Below are positions 5,776-36,929 of a DNA stretch of 64,000 bases, piece after piece. This stretch comes from Candidatus Burarchaeum australiense. GTDB lineage: Archaea > Micrarchaeota > Micrarchaeia > Burarchaeales > Burarchaeaceae. Made by a program: the position numbers and the translations under genes. Position 1 is the first letter of the stretch. Each line of letters starts with the position of its first letter. The DNA lies in NCBI GenBank assembly GCA_902386535.1, contig CABMJK010000039.1, forward strand, positions 678 through 64,677. The letters run 5' to 3'. Under the pieces are notes generated by a model. The model saw nothing but the letters and a program-made list of their open reading frames with translations, searched no databases and was not told the DNA's origin.

Positions 5776-7605
5776 TCATATCAGCCTCATCAGTCCCTCA
5801 ATCTCGATGTCCCCGCCCAGAAGGGGCGAGAAGACCTTGATGAACGTTATCGTTATTATGAAGTTGAAGATCGGCAGGATGAGGCCCGCGACTATCAGCT
5901 GGGCCAGCCCAATTACATCTCCCGTCACGACATAGTTGTTGGAGTCCAGGGCCGGCACCGCGCCCGATGTAAGGGAAGTCTGGTCAGTGCACTTTTTCTG
6001 CACTTCCGGGTCCGGGAGAATCGTGAGGCGCGCAGCATCGGCCGCACTGGTAACGAGGTCGCCCGCAGCCGCGTCATAGCCCGCGCACAGCTTGCAGGCC
6101 TCGGCCACGGACGGGTCCTCCCAGCACGCATTCGGAAGGCCGGGCAGCACCTCGTCGAAATAGTTCGGGTAGCTGGGCGGGCTTATGCCGGCTTTCCTGT
6201 AAGTTATGCGGCAGTCGGCGTTGGCGTTCGAGGGGCAGGTCGAGCACTCGGTTTTGTACGGATCCAAAAGCGGGTTCGAAACCACGTAATCGTTGCACGA
6301 GGCTATGAAAAGATTATTGAGTTGGGCATAGTCCCTGGCCTGCGCCCGGTACTTCGCCGAATCGGCGTCCCCTCCGTTTGCTTTCGCGAAAGCATTGCAG
6401 CCCGCGTCCATCGAGCACGGGAACGCGATGTCCAGGAAGGTGGCGGCGCAGCTGCGGTAGCACAAATCATAACTCGGATAGAGGGCCTTGGGAGGCGTGG
6501 TCGCATCCTTGCAATAGCCTTCGCACGCGTCATTGCACGCGGTTTGCGCGAAAGGCGGCGCGGCAGGATTTGGAGCCGTGCACGCTGCGGCGCACTTCTG
6601 GCCCACGCCCACGGGCACCTCGACGTAGAGGTCATTGCGCGGGCAGCAAGTGGCGAGGTCTATCTTGGAATTCGGGTCTATCAGCGGATCGCCATAATCT
6701 TCGCAGTATTGGATGCCGATTCCTGTGGGCTCGTTGTATTTCACGTTCAGTGAGATGGGGAAGGAGTATTGGAAGAGAAGGTAGGTCAGAGGATAGACCG
6801 TGAAGAGGGCGATGGCAATCGCAATCAGGAGCCCGCCCAGCTTGCGCGTGAAGAAGATGGCGCGCAGCACGACTCCGGCTATCAGCAGGAGCGGTATCAG
6901 GCTCGCCTGCAGGTATTGCAGGAAGAGCTGCTGCGCATTCAGCGAGGCGGCCAGCCGCATGGCCTCGTCCGCTATCTGCATGTCCCGGTCGCTGAAGATG
7001 TCCACGCCGGCGGCATAGCGCATCGAGAAGCCGGAGAAGAATGCGGGAAGCAGGTCAACTGCCACGAGGCTGAACTTGCCGGTGGATTTGCCTATCATCT
7101 TGACCGCGTGGATGGTGGAATCGTGCGTGAGCTTCAAGCTGATGTCGCGCAAGTCGGAAAGGTAGGTCTCGGCCATCAGGAATTGCTGCTCGCCGCTCGT
7201 GCAGGGGAGAGTGGGGGCGAGGGGGTTCGAGAGGTTGACCAGCGAGCACGAAAGCTGGCTGAGGGTTGAAAAGAGAAGGATGAGCATGAAGATTATGAGC
7301 ATGGACATGCCGGCCTGGAAGAACTCGGTGACGGCCCAGGCGTGCAGCTCCTTGCTCTGCGAGAACTCGGCCAGCAGGTAGACCAGCGAGATTATGAGTA
7401 TTGTCACGAACACTATGAGCAGCGAAGTGGTGCCCCAGTTATCCTGCAGCCACGAGGTGGTGACCTGGTTTTCGGAAGGCCCTGGCGCGTTGACGGGAAG
7501 GCCCGCGCACCCGGAGAGGGCCAGCACTAGGAAGATGAAGAGGAGCACGAGCGCAGTCGCCGCAAACGATGCACGGGCTCTCGGGGCCCTGTTTTCATTC
7601 TGCAT
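5776..7605 (-). CDS. Paralog P4 (609 aa) with lipobox signal peptide and an about 270-aa Cys-rich ectodomain insertion
   Basis: LVLALSGC is a lipobox. Motif A is SLVYLLAEFSQSKELHAWAVTEFFQ, motif B GVVLRAIFFTRKLGGLLIAIAIALFTVYP, tail LGGDIEIEGLMRLI. About 20 Cys lie between aa 285 and 560 (nt 5926-6753). Confidence 0.8.
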   Translation of the reverse strand: MQNENRAPRARASFAATALVLLFIFLVLALSGCAGLPVNAPGPSENQVTTSWLQDNWGTTSLLIVFVTILIISLVYLLAEFSQSKELHAWAVTEFFQAGMSMLIIFMLILLFSTLSQLSCSLVNLSNPLAPTLPCTSGEQQFLMAETYLSDLRDISLKLTHDSTIHAVKMIGKSTGKFSLVAVDLLPAFFSGFSMRYAAGVDIFSDRDMQIADEAMRLAASLNAQQLFLQYLQASLIPLLLIAGVVLRAIFFTRKLGGLLIAIAIALFTVYPLTYLLFQYSFPISLNVKYNEPTGIGIQYCEDYGDPLIDPNSKIDLATCCPRNDLYVEVPVGVGQKCAAACTAPNPAAPPFAQTACNDACEGYCKDATTPPKALYPSYDLCYRSCAATFLDIAFPCSMDAGCNAFAKANGGDADSAKYRAQARDYAQLNNLFIASCNDYVVSNPLLDPYKTECSTCPSNANADCRITYRKAGISPPSYPNYFDEVLPGLPNACWEDPSVAEACKLCAGYDAAAGDLVTSAADAARLTILPDPEVQKKCTDQTSLTSGAVPALDSNNYVVTGDVIGLAQLIVAGLILPIFNFIITITFIKVFSPLLGGDIEIEGLMRLI

Positions 7606-32332: not shown

Positions 32333-32342
32333 CTATTTAAAC
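32333..32342 (+). promoter_or_regulatory. TATA-like box CTATTTAAAC upstream of the pilin-like operon
   Basis: Its centre is about 25 nt upstream of ATG 32363, suggesting a leaderless transcript. Confidence 0.45.
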
Positions 32343-32362: not shown

Positions 32363-33124
32363 ATGAGAACGAGGGCGCGGACGAACGAGGGCGGATTGAA
32401 GTGCCCCCTGCGGGCGCAGGCAAGCGTCGAGATTATAATCATACTGGCCTCGCTCCTCCTTGTTTTCGGGCTCATACTCAACGCCGCCGGATTGCGGCTT
32501 GGCGACACGCGCACCTTTGCGGACAACGAGATGACGGGCGCGGGAGTAAGCGGCATTGCGGCAGCGGCCGACGAAGTCTATGCCGAAGGCGTTGGCAGCC
32601 AAAGGCTGGTGAAGCTCAGCCTGCCGGCCTCTGTGGTGCAGGGCAGGAGCTTTGTGGACGGCCACCTGCTCGGCGTGCAGCTGCTGAACGCCCGGGGCCC
32701 GACGGACATCAACGCCCGGGCCGGGGCGCCGATGCAGGGCTCGCTGCCCGACACGCCGGGCGATCACCAGGTGCGCGTGAAGGCTGCGCAGGGATTTGTA
32801 ATAATTGGGGAGACCTCACTGTCTATTGAGCCGACGCTGCTCTATGCATATCTAGGGAAGACCGGCGAGTCTGAAGCAAAACTCACGATAATCAACACGG
32901 GTAATGAGCCGCTCACGCTCTCGCTTTCCCTCGACTGGCCAAATCAGGCCGTCAGCGCAGCGCTGGACCAAACCTCGCTTTCGCTGCAGCCTGGCGAGGC
33001 GCGCACGGTCAGCGTGAAGTTTGCGAGCGGTGAGACTGCAGGCACCTATGCAGGCGAGCTCGTGCTTGATGCCAGCAACGGGGAACAGTTCAACGTCGGG
33101 GTGATGGCAGATGTCCTCGCGTAG
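32363..33124 (+). CDS. Class III signal peptide (archaeal type IV pilin-like) protein A (253 aa)
   Basis: MRTRARTNEGGLKCPLRAQ|ASVEIIIILASLLLVFGLIL has the QxSxE motif followed by a hydrophobic helix, as in archaeal class III signal peptides. The C-terminal part looks beta-rich. Confidence 0.7.
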   Translation: MRTRARTNEGGLKCPLRAQASVEIIIILASLLLVFGLILNAAGLRLGDTRTFADNEMTGAGVSGIAAAADEVYAEGVGSQRLVKLSLPASVVQGRSFVDGHLLGVQLLNARGPTDINARAGAPMQGSLPDTPGDHQVRVKAAQGFVIIGETSLSIEPTLLYAYLGKTGESEAKLTIINTGNEPLTLSLSLDWPNQAVSAALDQTSLSLQPGEARTVSVKFASGETAGTYAGELVLDASNGEQFNVGVMADVLA

Positions 33125-33575
33125 GCAAAGGGCGCAGGCAGGAGAAAGCGGAGCGCCGTGCCCCCTGCGGGCGCAGGCGAGCGTCGAGCTGCTCATAATG
33201 TCCTTTTTCGCAGTCGCCATCATACTCGCGCTTTTCTCAGTCTACACCAACATGCTGAACGTGAATTCCGGCGACTCCCAGCTGAGGCATGCGCAGGCAG
33301 TGGCCGGCCGGCTTGCCGGCGCCATGAACGCGGTCGGGCAGGGCATTGACGGGAGCGAGGCACGCGTGAGCCTGGCCGATGCGTCGGGGCTCGAAGTCTC
33401 GTTCCAGGGCAGGAGCGTGCGGGCCGCGTGGAGTAATTACGGAGGTGGCAGGAGCGAGGCCTCTTCGCCCACGTTCACGGACAACGTTGATTTCAGCGTG
33501 GGCCCGGGCGGGGCTGGCGGCAAGAATCTGATTGTGAAAAAAGACGGGGAAAAAATAGTCGTGAGGCAGGCCTGA
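33111..33575 (+). CDS. Class III signal peptide (pilin-like) protein B (154 aa)
   Basis: ...GAPCPLRAQ|ASVELLIMSFFAVAIILALFSVY. The leader motif CPLRAQASVE is identical to protein A. It overlaps gene A by 14 nt. Confidence 0.7.
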   Translation: MSSRRQRAQAGESGAPCPLRAQASVELLIMSFFAVAIILALFSVYTNMLNVNSGDSQLRHAQAVAGRLAGAMNAVGQGIDGSEARVSLADASGLEVSFQGRSVRAAWSNYGGGRSEASSPTFTDNVDFSVGPGGAGGKNLIVKKDGEKIVVRQA

Positions 33576-33576
33576 C

Positions 33577-34158
33577 ATGGAGATGAAAATGAAGAAGATG
33601 GTGGGCGAGGGCGCAAGGAAAGGGCAGGTCATAAGCTATGACCTGATGCTCGCGACTACCGTAGCAGTGGCACTGCTGGGCGTCGTGCTGCTTGCCTCGA
33701 ACACGATTACGGCCGCGAGCGGGGCAGCGTATGACGAGGGCGCGCTGGTGGCGGATGGGGCATTGGCGCAGCTCGTGCTCACGCCGGGCTCGCCCGCTGA
33801 CTGGGCTGCGGGCGCGGCTGCCGGCACTGCTGCAGGCACCGGAGCAGGCGCAGCCTATGAGGCGCATTCGCTCGGCCTTGCAGAGAGACGCGGCGTGCTC
33901 GACAAGGAAAAGGTGGAGGCGTTTGCGGAACTCGATGGGCTGGCCGACGCGGAAGGCGGCCGCGTGTCTTTGCGCGAGAGGCTCGGGCTTTTGCGCGAGG
34001 GCGCCGCATATGATTTCCGGTTCGAGGTGCGCGGGCTTGACGGCTCGGCACTTTATGCCACGGGCCAGGAGCCAACGGGGAACGTGTTCGCGAGCAGGCG
34101 GCTGGTCGAGCTCGACGGCTCGCCTGTGACTGCGGTGATGATGGTTTGGAAGAAATAG
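33577..34158 (+). CDS. Class III signal peptide (pilin-like) protein C (193 aa)
   Basis: ...GARKGQ|VISYDLMLATTVAVALLGVVLLA. It starts 1 nt after the stop of gene B. Confidence 0.65.
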   Translation: MEMKMKKMVGEGARKGQVISYDLMLATTVAVALLGVVLLASNTITAASGAAYDEGALVADGALAQLVLTPGSPADWAAGAAAGTAAGTGAGAAYEAHSLGLAERRGVLDKEKVEAFAELDGLADAEGGRVSLRERLGLLREGAAYDFRFEVRGLDGSALYATGQEPTGNVFASRRLVELDGSPVTAVMMVWKK

Positions 34159-34213
34159 GAAAGAGTGAAGGGCGGGGAATGTGGCGGATGATGGAAATGC
34201 GAGGGATGGAAGA

Positions 34214-34603
34214 ATGCGCGGAATAATATTCACGGTGGACGCGGTCACTGCGGCAGCTTTCCTAGTCGTGCTCCTGTCAACCGCATTCCTGCTGATAAGC
34301 GCGCTGCCGGCCGGGCAGCCTGCCGAAGACCACTTCGCGCACGACGTGCTGGCAGTGTTGGATGGGAAGGCGGGGGCAGGGCTGAATGACGCGCAAGTGA
34401 GGCAGATGTTCCTGCAGGCCAACAAGTGCGGCTCGATTGTTGTAAGGGACGCGGCTGGTTTCGTCGTAGATTCCGCCTACGCGTGCGGCTGCGGCCAGGG
34501 CACCGAAACAGTTGCTTACAGAAGCCTCGTAAAAGTGGGCGCTGGCGGGGCGCTTGAAATCAATTTGGCAAAGGCAAGCGCGTGCCCGAGAACTGGGAGT
34601 TGA
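34214..34603 (+). CDS. Pilin-like protein D (129 aa from ATG 34214)
   Basis: MRG|IIFTVDAVTAAAFLVVLLSTAFLLI is a short basic leader plus hydrophobic helix. The track ORF starts at GTG 34181. Confidence 0.6.
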   Translation: MRGIIFTVDAVTAAAFLVVLLSTAFLLISALPAGQPAEDHFAHDVLAVLDGKAGAGLNDAQVRQMFLQANKCGSIVVRDAAGFVVDSAYACGCGQGTETVAYRSLVKVGAGGALEINLAKASACPRTGS

Positions 34604-34608
34604 AGGCC

Positions 34609-35415
34609 ATGAAAAAAGGTTTTGCATTCACCCTGCTGTTCGTGCTCATAGCCTCGCTGCTGGTCTTCATGGCGGCCGATGCGCTCAAATGGAAGACGGG
34701 CGAGCCGTCCTTCCGCGGGGTTTCGAAAAGCGCAGACATAGCTGATGACGTGGCACAGGACTTTTTCACGCTCATGAATGTTTCGGTTGGCGCCTCGCGC
34801 AATGCTACGCATGCGACGCTTTCGTTCGGCGACTCGCTGCCCTCGCGCCTCGCGGCACCGGAAGATGCCGTCACCAGCTACGTGCAATTCATCGAGGGCG
34901 AATACGCGAATGCAACGAATGCAAATATCAGCGTGCTTGGAACCAGTCCTGCAATCCGATTCTCGGCGCCAGACTTCAGCTATGAATACGGCAGCTGGAG
35001 CAAGGGCAGCGTCTCGCTCGTGGGCGAGGCTGATGCGTATTTCATCACTGCAAGGCTTGACAAGGAGTGCGGCGCGTGCCAGGCCGAAGGGGCGTGGAAC
35101 TGGACTGACGGGGGCACGTTCGTGATGCTCGACATCCAGGACTCGCAGGGCACGGCCGTGGCGCCCGGAGACAAGTCGAGCGGCTACATCAACCCCCAGC
35201 AGTACAACTATTTTGAAGTCATGCTCGCCGACAACTCTTCTTCGTTCCAGCTTTCAGCATTTGGCAACGAACTCGCGATTGCGCCGGCCAACGTGAAGGC
35301 GACCATCAATTCCAAGGTTTCGATCAGGCATGCTGGAGAGATAAGGGCAGCAATGCCGGTCGACCTCATTGTCGATGGAACCGAGTTTAACGGCGTGCCA
35401 TTGCTCGAAAAGTGA
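34609..35415 (+). CDS. Pilin-like protein E (268 aa from ATG 34609)
   Basis: MKKG|FAFTLLFVLIASLLVFMAA followed by a Ser/Asn/Ala-rich globular part. The track ORF starts at 34582, overlapping gene D. Confidence 0.6.
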   Translation: MKKGFAFTLLFVLIASLLVFMAADALKWKTGEPSFRGVSKSADIADDVAQDFFTLMNVSVGASRNATHATLSFGDSLPSRLAAPEDAVTSYVQFIEGEYANATNANISVLGTSPAIRFSAPDFSYEYGSWSKGSVSLVGEADAYFITARLDKECGACQAEGAWNWTDGGTFVMLDIQDSQGTAVAPGDKSSGYINPQQYNYFEVMLADNSSSFQLSAFGNELAIAPANVKATINSKVSIRHAGEIRAAMPVDLIVDGTEFNGVPLLEK

Positions 35416-35480
35416 CGGGCGGGTTTAAATAGTCCTGGCGCGGAAAGCAATGCAGTAAGGCGAGGGTAACGAGGGAAACC

Positions 35481-36929
35481 ATGCCGCAGGCATTTGCGCC
35501 AAGAGGCGAAACAGCAGCCGCTCATCTTGAGCAGGCCAGGGCCATGTACGACCAGTACATTGGAATGAATCCCACTCTTGCGCGCATAGTAGTCGTGGAT
35601 GTTTTCGAGAACGGACAGCTGCAGGACAGGTTCCTGGGCTTCAAGCTCGGCAACCGGATTTACGATTTCAGGACAGACCAGGCAACGGGCCGCGAGCGCG
35701 GCTGGGTGACCGAGGCAGACCTCAATCCGGCCGGCGGCAGGCAGGTTTACGCGTGGTCGTTCGAGAAGGACCGGCGGCTCGAGGGCCTGGGCAGCGAATT
35801 TCTCAACGCAGACCTCAGGCAGATGGGCGGGCAGACGCTGGTGCAATACGCGATTCATGGAAGGCTCGGGCAGGCAGGCTCGACCAACGCCAACCTTGGA
35901 AGCGTGCCGGTCAGGCAGGAAGGGACCGGAACTGCGGCCAGGCACATGCCAACTTCCGGAGCGCCTAGCAGCGACAGGATGTTTACGCGCATGTCAGACC
36001 ACACGCTCGCCATTGGCGAGGCCTCCCACGCAGTCGTGCGGGGCGAACTGAAAATTCCGGAGTCCACGCTGAGGCTCGGCTCCGCGCAAGTGCAGGACGT
36101 GAAGGATTTACAGACCTTGTTGAACTCGTTGGGGATTAGTGACGCGTCCGGCCACAGGCTCGAGGTCACGGGCGTTTTCGACCAGCAGACGAAGGAGGCC
36201 GTGACTGCCTGGCAAAAATACATCAACGACGCATATCACCGGGAAGGCGAGGGAAAACTGCTTTTGGAGGACGGGGTTTTCGGGCAACACACGAGGCATT
36301 TTACCCGCGTGATAATGGGGCTCGATCGGGAGGAGGGCTATGGCTTCGGGGGCGGCCGCACGATCGCTCCGGAACCACGGGACGTGGAAGGCGTTGGGAG
36401 CAGGGGGCCTGGCGAAGTGGAGAAACTCGAAGAGGCGCCGGGGCAGGCCACGGCAGGCGACGAGCAACCTGCGCCTGAAACTTCCGCGCCCGGTGCGTCG
36501 GCACAGCAACCGGAAGAGCCGGTCCAGCAGCAGGCAAGGAAAGTGAGCTGGCCCATCATGGGCGCGGGCGGGCAACTTCCGATAGAACCGATTGAGAAAT
36601 TCAGGAGTGGACAGCTCCTGAGCCTGCCGGCGGTAGAGGGCACGAGCGTGATCGCGCCGGTTGACGGGACTGTGACCGACATTTCAATAGGCATTTTCAG
36701 CGGCTATGTCAGGATTAGAGGCGATGACTGTCGGGAATATTTCATAGGCCATCTGAGCCCGGTGAGCATAAGGACAGTCTCAGTCAACGGGCATGTTACA
36801 GGAGGCCGCACCGTTCTGGGCCAGGTGGGCGGGCCGGACATAGTGCACGGCTATGCGAGAATAGAATTCAAGATTACCAAAAATGGTGCGGCGCTGGATC
36901 CGAGCAGGGTTGTTGGCAGCGAATACTAG
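35481..36929 (+). CDS. Protein with peptidoglycan-binding (PG_binding_1-like) domain and C-terminal LytM/M23-like domain lacking the catalytic His residues
   Basis: VQDVKDLQTLLNSLGISDASGHRLEVTGVFDQQTKEAVTAWQKYIN matches the PG_binding_1 pattern. EGTSVIAPVDGTVTDI...GYVRIRGDD..YFIGHLS...GHVTGGRTVLGQVGG...YARIEFKITKNGAALDP matches the M23 fold pattern, but HxxxD and HLHFE are replaced. No obvious signal peptide. Confidence 0.65.
   Translation: MPQAFAPRGETAAAHLEQARAMYDQYIGMNPTLARIVVVDVFENGQLQDRFLGFKLGNRIYDFRTDQATGRERGWVTEADLNPAGGRQVYAWSFEKDRRLEGLGSEFLNADLRQMGGQTLVQYAIHGRLGQAGSTNANLGSVPVRQEGTGTAARHMPTSGAPSSDRMFTRMSDHTLAIGEASHAVVRGELKIPESTLRLGSAQVQDVKDLQTLLNSLGISDASGHRLEVTGVFDQQTKEAVTAWQKYINDAYHREGEGKLLLEDGVFGQHTRHFTRVIMGLDREEGYGFGGGRTIAPEPRDVEGVGSRGPGEVEKLEEAPGQATAGDEQPAPETSAPGASAQQPEEPVQQQARKVSWPIMGAGGQLPIEPIEKFRSGQLLSLPAVEGTSVIAPVDGTVTDISIGIFSGYVRIRGDDCREYFIGHLSPVSIRTVSVNGHVTGGRTVLGQVGGPDIVHGYARIEFKITKNGAALDPSRVVGSEY

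Follow-up and report, generated by a model that had tools for sequence, protein, structure and literature searches.

A five-gene operon of Candidatus Burarchaeum australiense probably encodes minor pilins of an Epd/Tad-like type IV pilus

Can five pilin-like genes belong to a pilus when no gene for pilus assembly lies near them? This question is raised by a compact operon, here called P1-P5, at 32363-35415 in a 64,000-nt stretch of DNA (the window, meaning the whole stretch) of Candidatus Burarchaeum australiense, a tiny groundwater archaeon that belongs to the DPANN phylum Micrarchaeota (PMC8561730). The window comes from contig C39 of a metagenome-assembled archaeal genome of 1.2 Mb, with 68 contigs and ~60% GC. 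A first-pass annotation, made from the letters of the window, had proposed that the operon encodes one major and several minor subunits of a surface filament. In this study, all five products were found to look like minor pilins. We consider P1-P5 to be probably five minor pilins of an Epd/Tad-like type IV pilus (T4P) that would form a priming and tip complex, with no major subunit among them. The likely major pilin is a separate and far more conserved protein of 153 amino acids (aa), encoded beside the TadC-like genes of an assembly machine that begins on contig C33 and ends on contig C10 (C10:32952-33413). The assignment of P1-P5 to this C33 machine is well supported by sequence comparison with related genomes.

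Class III signals and the five protein families

All five plus-strand open reading frames (ORFs) are present in the ORF list of the window. With the promoter element, the operon consists of the following features:

32334-32341, plus strand: TATA-like box TATTTAAA, read in the sequence, 21 nt 5' of ATG 32363
32363-33124, plus strand: P1, ORF of 253 aa
33111-33575, plus strand: P2, ORF of 154 aa, overlapping P1 by 14 nt
33577-34158, plus strand: P3, ORF of 193 aa, 1-nt gap after P2
34181-34603, plus strand: P4, 140 aa from GTG 34181 or 129 aa from ATG 34214
34609-35415, plus strand: P5, 268 aa from ATG 34609, 5-nt gap after P4

As read from their sequences, P1-P5 are type IV pilin-like proteins with predicted class III signal peptides, and this identification is well supported. 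At the start of each protein, a basic leader precedes a hydrophobic segment of at least 20 residues; in all five the leader ends in [KR]-[GAS] ahead of a hydrophobic helix of ~20 residues, and this boundary is conserved in the orthologs. Alignment with orthologs from ~20 relatives and 40 named loci, in which families were assigned by gene order, puts the cut after [KR][GA]. By this alignment, the cleavage sites first read for P4 and P5 stand, whereas those for P1-P3 (RAQ/A and KGQ/V) had been set one residue too late. The predicted cuts (marked by a slash) and the mature N-termini of the families are:

P1: cut RA/QASVE; mature N-terminus Q-x-x-[VI]-E; E5 in 45/45 family members
P2: cut RA/QASVE after a 21-aa leader; mature N-terminus Q-x-S-x-[ED]-F; acid at +5 (E/D) in 34/34
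P3: cut KG/QVISYD; mature N-terminus Q-x-F-S-x-D; acid at +6 (D/E) in 44/45
P4: cut RG/IIFTVDA; mature N-terminus F-x-F-T-x-D-A, seen in 20 relatives; D6 in 27/34, some acid within +1 to +10 in all
P5: cut KG/FAFTLLFV; mature N-terminus F-x-F-T-Φ; no D/E within +1 to +10 in 35/36 locus members

Since Q at +1 served to choose the cut in P1-P3, only the acidic positions are independent observations. The acid-free N-terminus of P5 is also seen beyond the loci: of 137 P5 library representatives whose cut site can be recognised, 136 have no acidic residue at the N-terminus. The original description of the products as type IV pilin-like proteins with a class III signal is thus upheld by the conserved cut boundary, by the N-terminal signatures of the families and by the recurrence of the same five families in order across relatives. 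Chance does not explain this pattern, since the set of five recurs with its gene order intact both within an archaeal order and in several DPANN phyla.

The families are partly related to each other. P1 and P2 are homologous according to HHalign (97.8% probability over ~130 columns), and so are P3 and P4 (94.4% over ~127 columns). Matches to curated families stay below threshold. P2 alone among the five matches Class_IIIsignal (PF04021), with 13.0 bits against a gathering cut-off of 23.7 (E 0.1); the pilin on C10 reaches 16.9 bits with the same model. P3 matches DUF7287 (PF23958), a haloarchaeal pilin-like family, with 12.8 bits against a cut-off of 27 (E 0.18). In a Pfam scan of the family alignments, sub-threshold DUF7287 matches were obtained for 11 of 27 P3-family members (best E 2.4e-5) and no match for the P4 and P5 families. 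DUF7287 was above cut-off in none of 31 DPANN genomes and, among 14 control genomes, was matched in Haloferax volcanii only; P3 is a remote relative of that family at most. A literature search on DUF7287-DUF7289 returned no papers. P4 contains four Cys. P5 carries six N-X-S/T sequons and a CxxC pair, and P1-P4 carry no sequon. In a profile search of 1.84 billion representatives the P5 family comprised 937 clusters, 573 of them at E <= 1e-10; it is uniform in length (~280 aa), and every sampled member is annotated as a hypothetical protein from a DPANN archaeon. A homology search with the P5 protein itself reached just four close relatives of the Burarchaeum type. Within its own genome P5 has one match only, so that its orthology is one-to-one.

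The layout proposed earlier, five tightly packed and co-oriented genes each with a basic leader and a hydrophobic helix, was borne out in coordinates and N-termini. The gap between P3 and P4 is 22 nt with the GTG 34181 start or 55 nt with the ATG 34214 start, and the reading frame of P5 is open already from GTG 34582. Upstream of the operon lies a divergent purL gene, and the operon stands beside purL/purQ. The 14-nt overlap of P1 and P2 is kept in a genome of the same genus (G001). The proposal of one operon with a TATA box suited to a leaderless mRNA held as well: the block GATAGCTATTTAAACC, the next 21 nt and the ATG are common to the window genome and G001, and this conservation of box, spacing and start codon supports a predicted leaderless operon mRNA. 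Relative to G001, where the leader reads MRA/Q, the P1 leader of the window (32366-32433) has a 16-codon insertion. A segment made up of the 3' end of this insertion and the next ~23 nt, including the cleavage-site codons, matches the P2 leader (33158-33190) in 31/33 nt with 2 mismatches, an apparent case of local gene conversion between the 5' ends of the two genes.

Assembly genes in the genome and in related loci

Complete absence of a prepilin peptidase or an assembly ATPase from the genome, the counter-evidence foreseen in the first-pass annotation, was not what we found. A whole-genome search returned five T2SSE ATPases (on C33, C54, C24, C56 and C50), seven T2SSF platform matches and a single Peptidase_A24 prepilin peptidase (C59:10527-11432). 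No T2SSE, T2SSF or Peptidase_A24 match lies on C39, in agreement with the first description of a window without assembly genes. The machine on C33 occupies C33:4139-7402 and continues onto C10. TadC1 lies at C33:5869-6741; TadC2 starts at C33:6738, its 5' part (6738-7402) ends the contig, and its last ~60 codons form a 61-aa ORF at the end of C10 (33469-33654). Because TadC2 is split over two contig ends, C33 is adjacent to the reverse complement of C10 in the chromosome, with ~40 TadC2 codons missing between them. The conserved 153-aa pilin is next after TadC2, and thus ATPase, TadC1, TadC2 and pilin are still together. Beyond the pilin, purB is found on C10, and P1-P5 stand beside purL/purQ. 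With the NCBIfam models, the C33 ATPase scores below threshold for FlaI (271 vs 550 bits) and, second best, for the TadA family. We also considered each of the five ATPases as an archaellum motor and rejected this, since all are far below the FlaI equivalog cut-off.

The organisation of related loci connects the operon to this machine. We annotated 20 related regions in which homologs of P1 and P5 keep a constant spacing. At least 12 genomes of the same order have P1-P2-P3-P4-P5 directly beside an ortholog of the C33 ATPase (49-66% identity), two T2SSF/TadC-like genes and a small pilin with the N-terminus QAATEYLIILAVVVIIAL. The N-terminus of the small pilin (QAATEYLIILAVVVIIALIVVGVLGG) is nearly invariant among relatives. 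A wider sample of 80 named loci was obtained with an ATPase profile; their labels are all DPANN or unassigned archaea, and hidden Markov models of the families were then applied to them. All five families are colinear in 13 of the 80 and four in 10 more; most of the remaining loci are short contigs. Loci bearing the module belong to Micrarchaeota, Iainarchaeum, the complete genome of archaeon GW2011_AR10, Parvarchaeota, Aenigmatarchaeota, Woesearchaeota, Nanobdellota and Anstonellaceae, and the commonest order is P1-P2-P3-P4-P5-ATPase-TadC1-TadC2-pilin.

These loci bear on whether the operon could form a filament of its own, with one of the five products (e.g., P1) as major pilin, the others as its minor pilins and any ATPase of the genome as the motor. 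P1 would be the natural choice, being the first gene, the protein most like ordinary QxxxE pilins and the most widespread family, with orthologs in 54/61 related genomes. However, a separate small pilin with a nearly invariant helix stands beside TadC2 in almost every related locus and in the genome itself, each family occurs once per module in a fixed order, and P1 ranges from 135 to ~1200 aa across its family with added domains, as is typical of decorated minor pilins. In the window protein, sub-threshold Ig-like matches (Cep192_D3/D4, ASH, choice-of-anchor D; E ~1e-5) cover the C-terminal region ~167-250. We therefore regard a major pilin among the five as unlikely.

The absence of assembly genes near the operon is not a feature of the system: in relatives these genes are contiguous with P1-P5, and their separation is a lineage-specific split. 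The placement of the operon beside purL is shared by G001 and by a genome of the same family (G003), which indicates that the split predates the family Burarchaeaceae. In the Burarchaeaceae the ancestral super-locus fell into three parts, one holding the regulators, one P1-P5, and one the motor together with the likely major pilin; the operon retained a promoter of its own, predicted to give a leaderless mRNA. From gene order and sequence comparison, the arrangement in the window genome is derived, a secondary break-up of a contiguous locus. The regulators are KaiC-like ATPases, a Roadblock/LC7 protein and a KaiC protein fused to a Ras/Arf-like small GTPase, which often lie upstream of P1 in relatives (L040:12099-15418, G007:C5); an MglA/MglB-like pair thus stands beside a type IV pilus locus there. 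Their orthologs in the window genome are at C36:7226-8528 and C6:6517-7760, on two contigs that appear to abut.

Variants of the module were also observed. A second subtype of the locus carries, between P1 and P2, an inserted gene for a large secreted protein of 526-1312 aa (L047:7319-9439, L049:10712-14650, L050:9948-11528, L056:10304-12775), and this protein is a candidate adhesin or tip-associated protein. In six loci of Woesearchaeota and Nanoarchaeota (L092, L095, L102, L114, L120, L134), the place of P4 is held by a protein of ~830-930 aa with the same F-x-F-T-x-D N-terminus, and the small P4 has become a large modular pilin there. P-type modules keep their order across DPANN phyla and occur in several paralogous copies per genome. 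In the window genome, a module at C16:14020-18471 has a rotated order (P4, a 665-aa P5-like protein, P1, P2, P3), another at C66:1-4116 reads P1-P2-P3-P4 and is interrupted by the contig end, and further members of the P-type families lie at C42:2550-6249. Nine tandem paralogous pilins (QAAMEYLMTYGWAIL) at C48:552-6697 resemble the pilin beside the C56 ATPase (C56:105-602).

A proposed priming and tip complex

For the minor pilins P1-P5, we propose the following sequence of events. The preproteins would insert into the membrane via their N-terminal helix, and the single A24 peptidase would remove the leader after [KR][GA]. The five mature proteins may then form a staggered complex on the platform of ATPase, TadC1 and TadC2, which would prime the polymerisation of the C10 pilin and end up at the pilus tip. 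P5 would be the distal cap, like PilX or GspK, because it lacks the acidic residue with which the N-terminus of another subunit could pair. P5 and P1 are likely the exposed or adhesive parts, given the six glycosylation sequons on P5 and the Ig-like domain on P1.

The model for this proposal is the set of core minor pilins in bacteria (GspH-I-J-K / FimU-PilVWX). The bacterial cap pilin PilX lacks Glu5, and PilX/GspK without Glu5 caps the priming complex (PMC13759059). Both sets are small, consist of distinct pilin-like proteins in a fixed order and have one larger member without the helix acid, PilX/GspK in the bacterial set and P5 in the archaeal one; the role suggested for both is that of a priming complex which comes to lie at the tip. 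In contrast to the bacterial sets, there are five families here instead of four, and the acid is at +6 in P3 and P4. PDB-profile and Foldseek searches with P3 and P5 gave no similarity to solved GspI/J/K or PilV/W/X. The resemblance is organisational only (set size, fixed order, acid-less member) and may be convergent.

The same parallel could be read in another way, with P1-P5 as a short pseudopilus or a membrane-anchored platform, comparable to the pseudopilus of the type II secretion system (T2SS) or the bindosome of Sulfolobus, that exports or displays proteins. The number of subunits and the acid-less member do resemble GspH-I-J-K of the T2SS, and related loci often have a secreted protein of 500-1300 aa between P1 and P2. 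A possible cargo would be the murein-binding protein encoded directly 3' of the operon in the window genome, a peptidoglycan (PG)-binding protein with a degenerate M23 (dLytM) domain. However, G001 and G003 lack this gene at that position, the locus includes a conserved pilin of the major type, and no secretin-like or cargo gene is conserved in it; such a pseudopilus or platform thus seems improbable to us.

The first-pass annotation had pointed out the adjacent murein-binding gene, and the comparison with related genomes speaks against it as a conserved partner of the operon. The two features concerned are:

35424-35431: TATA-like box TTTAAATA of the murein-binding gene
35481-36929: PG-binding/dLytM gene, between the convergent P5 and NYN-domain genes

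The murein-binding gene is missing from the two relatives G001 and G003, where P5 abuts the NYN-domain gene with at most 32 nt between them. Based on this absence, the comparison of the three genomes indicates that the murein-binding gene is an insertion specific to the window genome and not a conserved partner. A functional link between the operon and the PG-binding gene was considered and is rejected for this reason.

Among archaeal systems, the organisation is closest to a group that has been described twice. Clade 1 of the archaeal T4P was described by Makarova and colleagues in 2016, and system 1 of the type IV filaments (T4F) in PLoS Genetics in 2026. [quoted passage not shown] Two TadC-like genes beside the ATPase are present on C33/C10 and in relatives, and at least five minor pilin-like proteins were found together with a stand-alone major pilin. 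In the Epd pilus of Methanococcus maripaludis, which belongs to this clade, an ATPase is likewise accompanied by two separate TadC-like genes, several minor pilin-like proteins are encoded in one operon apart from the major pilin, and the mature pilins have Q at +1. The two systems also differ. No EppA-type peptidase or DUF2341/PilY-like adhesin was found in the loci of the window genome or its relatives; the one A24 gene of the window genome is elsewhere, on C59. The candidate major pilin is ~150 aa here vs ~70 aa in Epd, the P4 and P5 families have F instead of Q at +1, P1-P5 are undetected by Pfam/NCBIfam, and the minor-pilin operon of the window genome lies apart from the motor. With the bacterial Tad pilus (TadA, TadB + TadC, Flp, TadE/TadF) the system shares a split platform with two TadC-like genes, an ATPase of the FlaI/TadA type and pseudopilins beyond the major pilin. 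However, the Tad pilus has two pseudopilins, a very small Flp pilin and outer-membrane components, whereas the archaeal system has five pilin-like proteins.

Several observations weigh against the assignment of P1-P5 as minor pilins of such a pilus. No Pfam or NCBIfam model reaches its cut-off for any of P1-P5 in scans of the window proteins. The AlphaFold2 model of P5 (predicted local distance difference test score, pLDDT, 90.3; predicted template modelling score, pTM, 0.79) has helices at 2-30 and 35-56 followed by a beta-rich domain, and Foldseek found no fold match for it in the PDB (best E 0.027, template modelling score, TM, <= 0.18). For P3, Foldseek returned no solved pilin or minor pilin, and PDB sequence-profile searches with P3 and P5 gave nothing meaningful. 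The operon is unlinked to any ATPase in its own genome, so that its pairing with C33 rests on orthology with relatives, and the genome contains four other ATPases and at least two other P-type modules (C16, C66). The label Epd-like is drawn from the organisation of the locus. Finally, the priming and tip role is inferred by analogy with bacteria. The AlphaFold2 model of P3 (pLDDT 86) combines an N-terminal helix of 53 residues (16-68) with short helices and a sheet of four strands; like the P5 model, it appears to show the general pilin architecture, and overall the modelled folds are compatible with pilins while falling short of a demonstrated structural match.

The lack of a curated pilin profile at threshold and of a structural match to solved pilins would also be expected if the helices were ordinary uncleaved signal anchors, and P1-P5 unrelated membrane proteins that merely look like pilins. 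We consider this very unlikely. The [KR][GA] boundary is conserved across phyla, the acid is fixed at +5/+6 in four families, and in relatives the genes are strictly linked to a T4P ATPase, TadC genes and a pilin; the long N-terminal helix followed by a beta-sheet in the P3 model also argues against it.

Significance for DPANN archaea

DPANN archaea cannot do without contact with host cells, and type IV pili are commonly suspected of making it. The T4F genes of DPANN were reported to occur rarely in one locus and to be scattered and hard to assign, and the 2026 survey asks whether genome reduction split an originally contiguous cluster (PMC13705601). With the unannotated P families taken into account, the cluster proves to be contiguous in many DPANN genomes, and the Burarchaeaceae offer an actual example of its splitting. 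Pilin genes that lack a machine are then no longer an oddity of the window, and the operon is uncoupled from the murein-binding gene. The five families are invisible to Pfam and NCBIfam and annotated as hypothetical proteins. This fixed pilin-like set belongs to one ATPase/TadC/pilin machine across many DPANN lineages. It also provides candidates for the pilus tip and adhesin, with P5 as a cap and P1 with its variable domains, and a testable parallel to the bacterial priming complex. More tentatively, and at odds that we place below even, the P1-P5 module could correspond in archaea to the core minor-pilin priming complex of bacteria with its Glu5-less cap, perhaps even as a true homolog, and may be a device of these ultra-small symbionts for starting pili and presenting host-binding tips. 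If this were true, a capped multi-pilin priming complex would be ancestral to type IV filaments and not a bacterial invention, and the T4P loci of DPANN would be ordered, looking scattered because the arCOG/Pfam models miss the P families.

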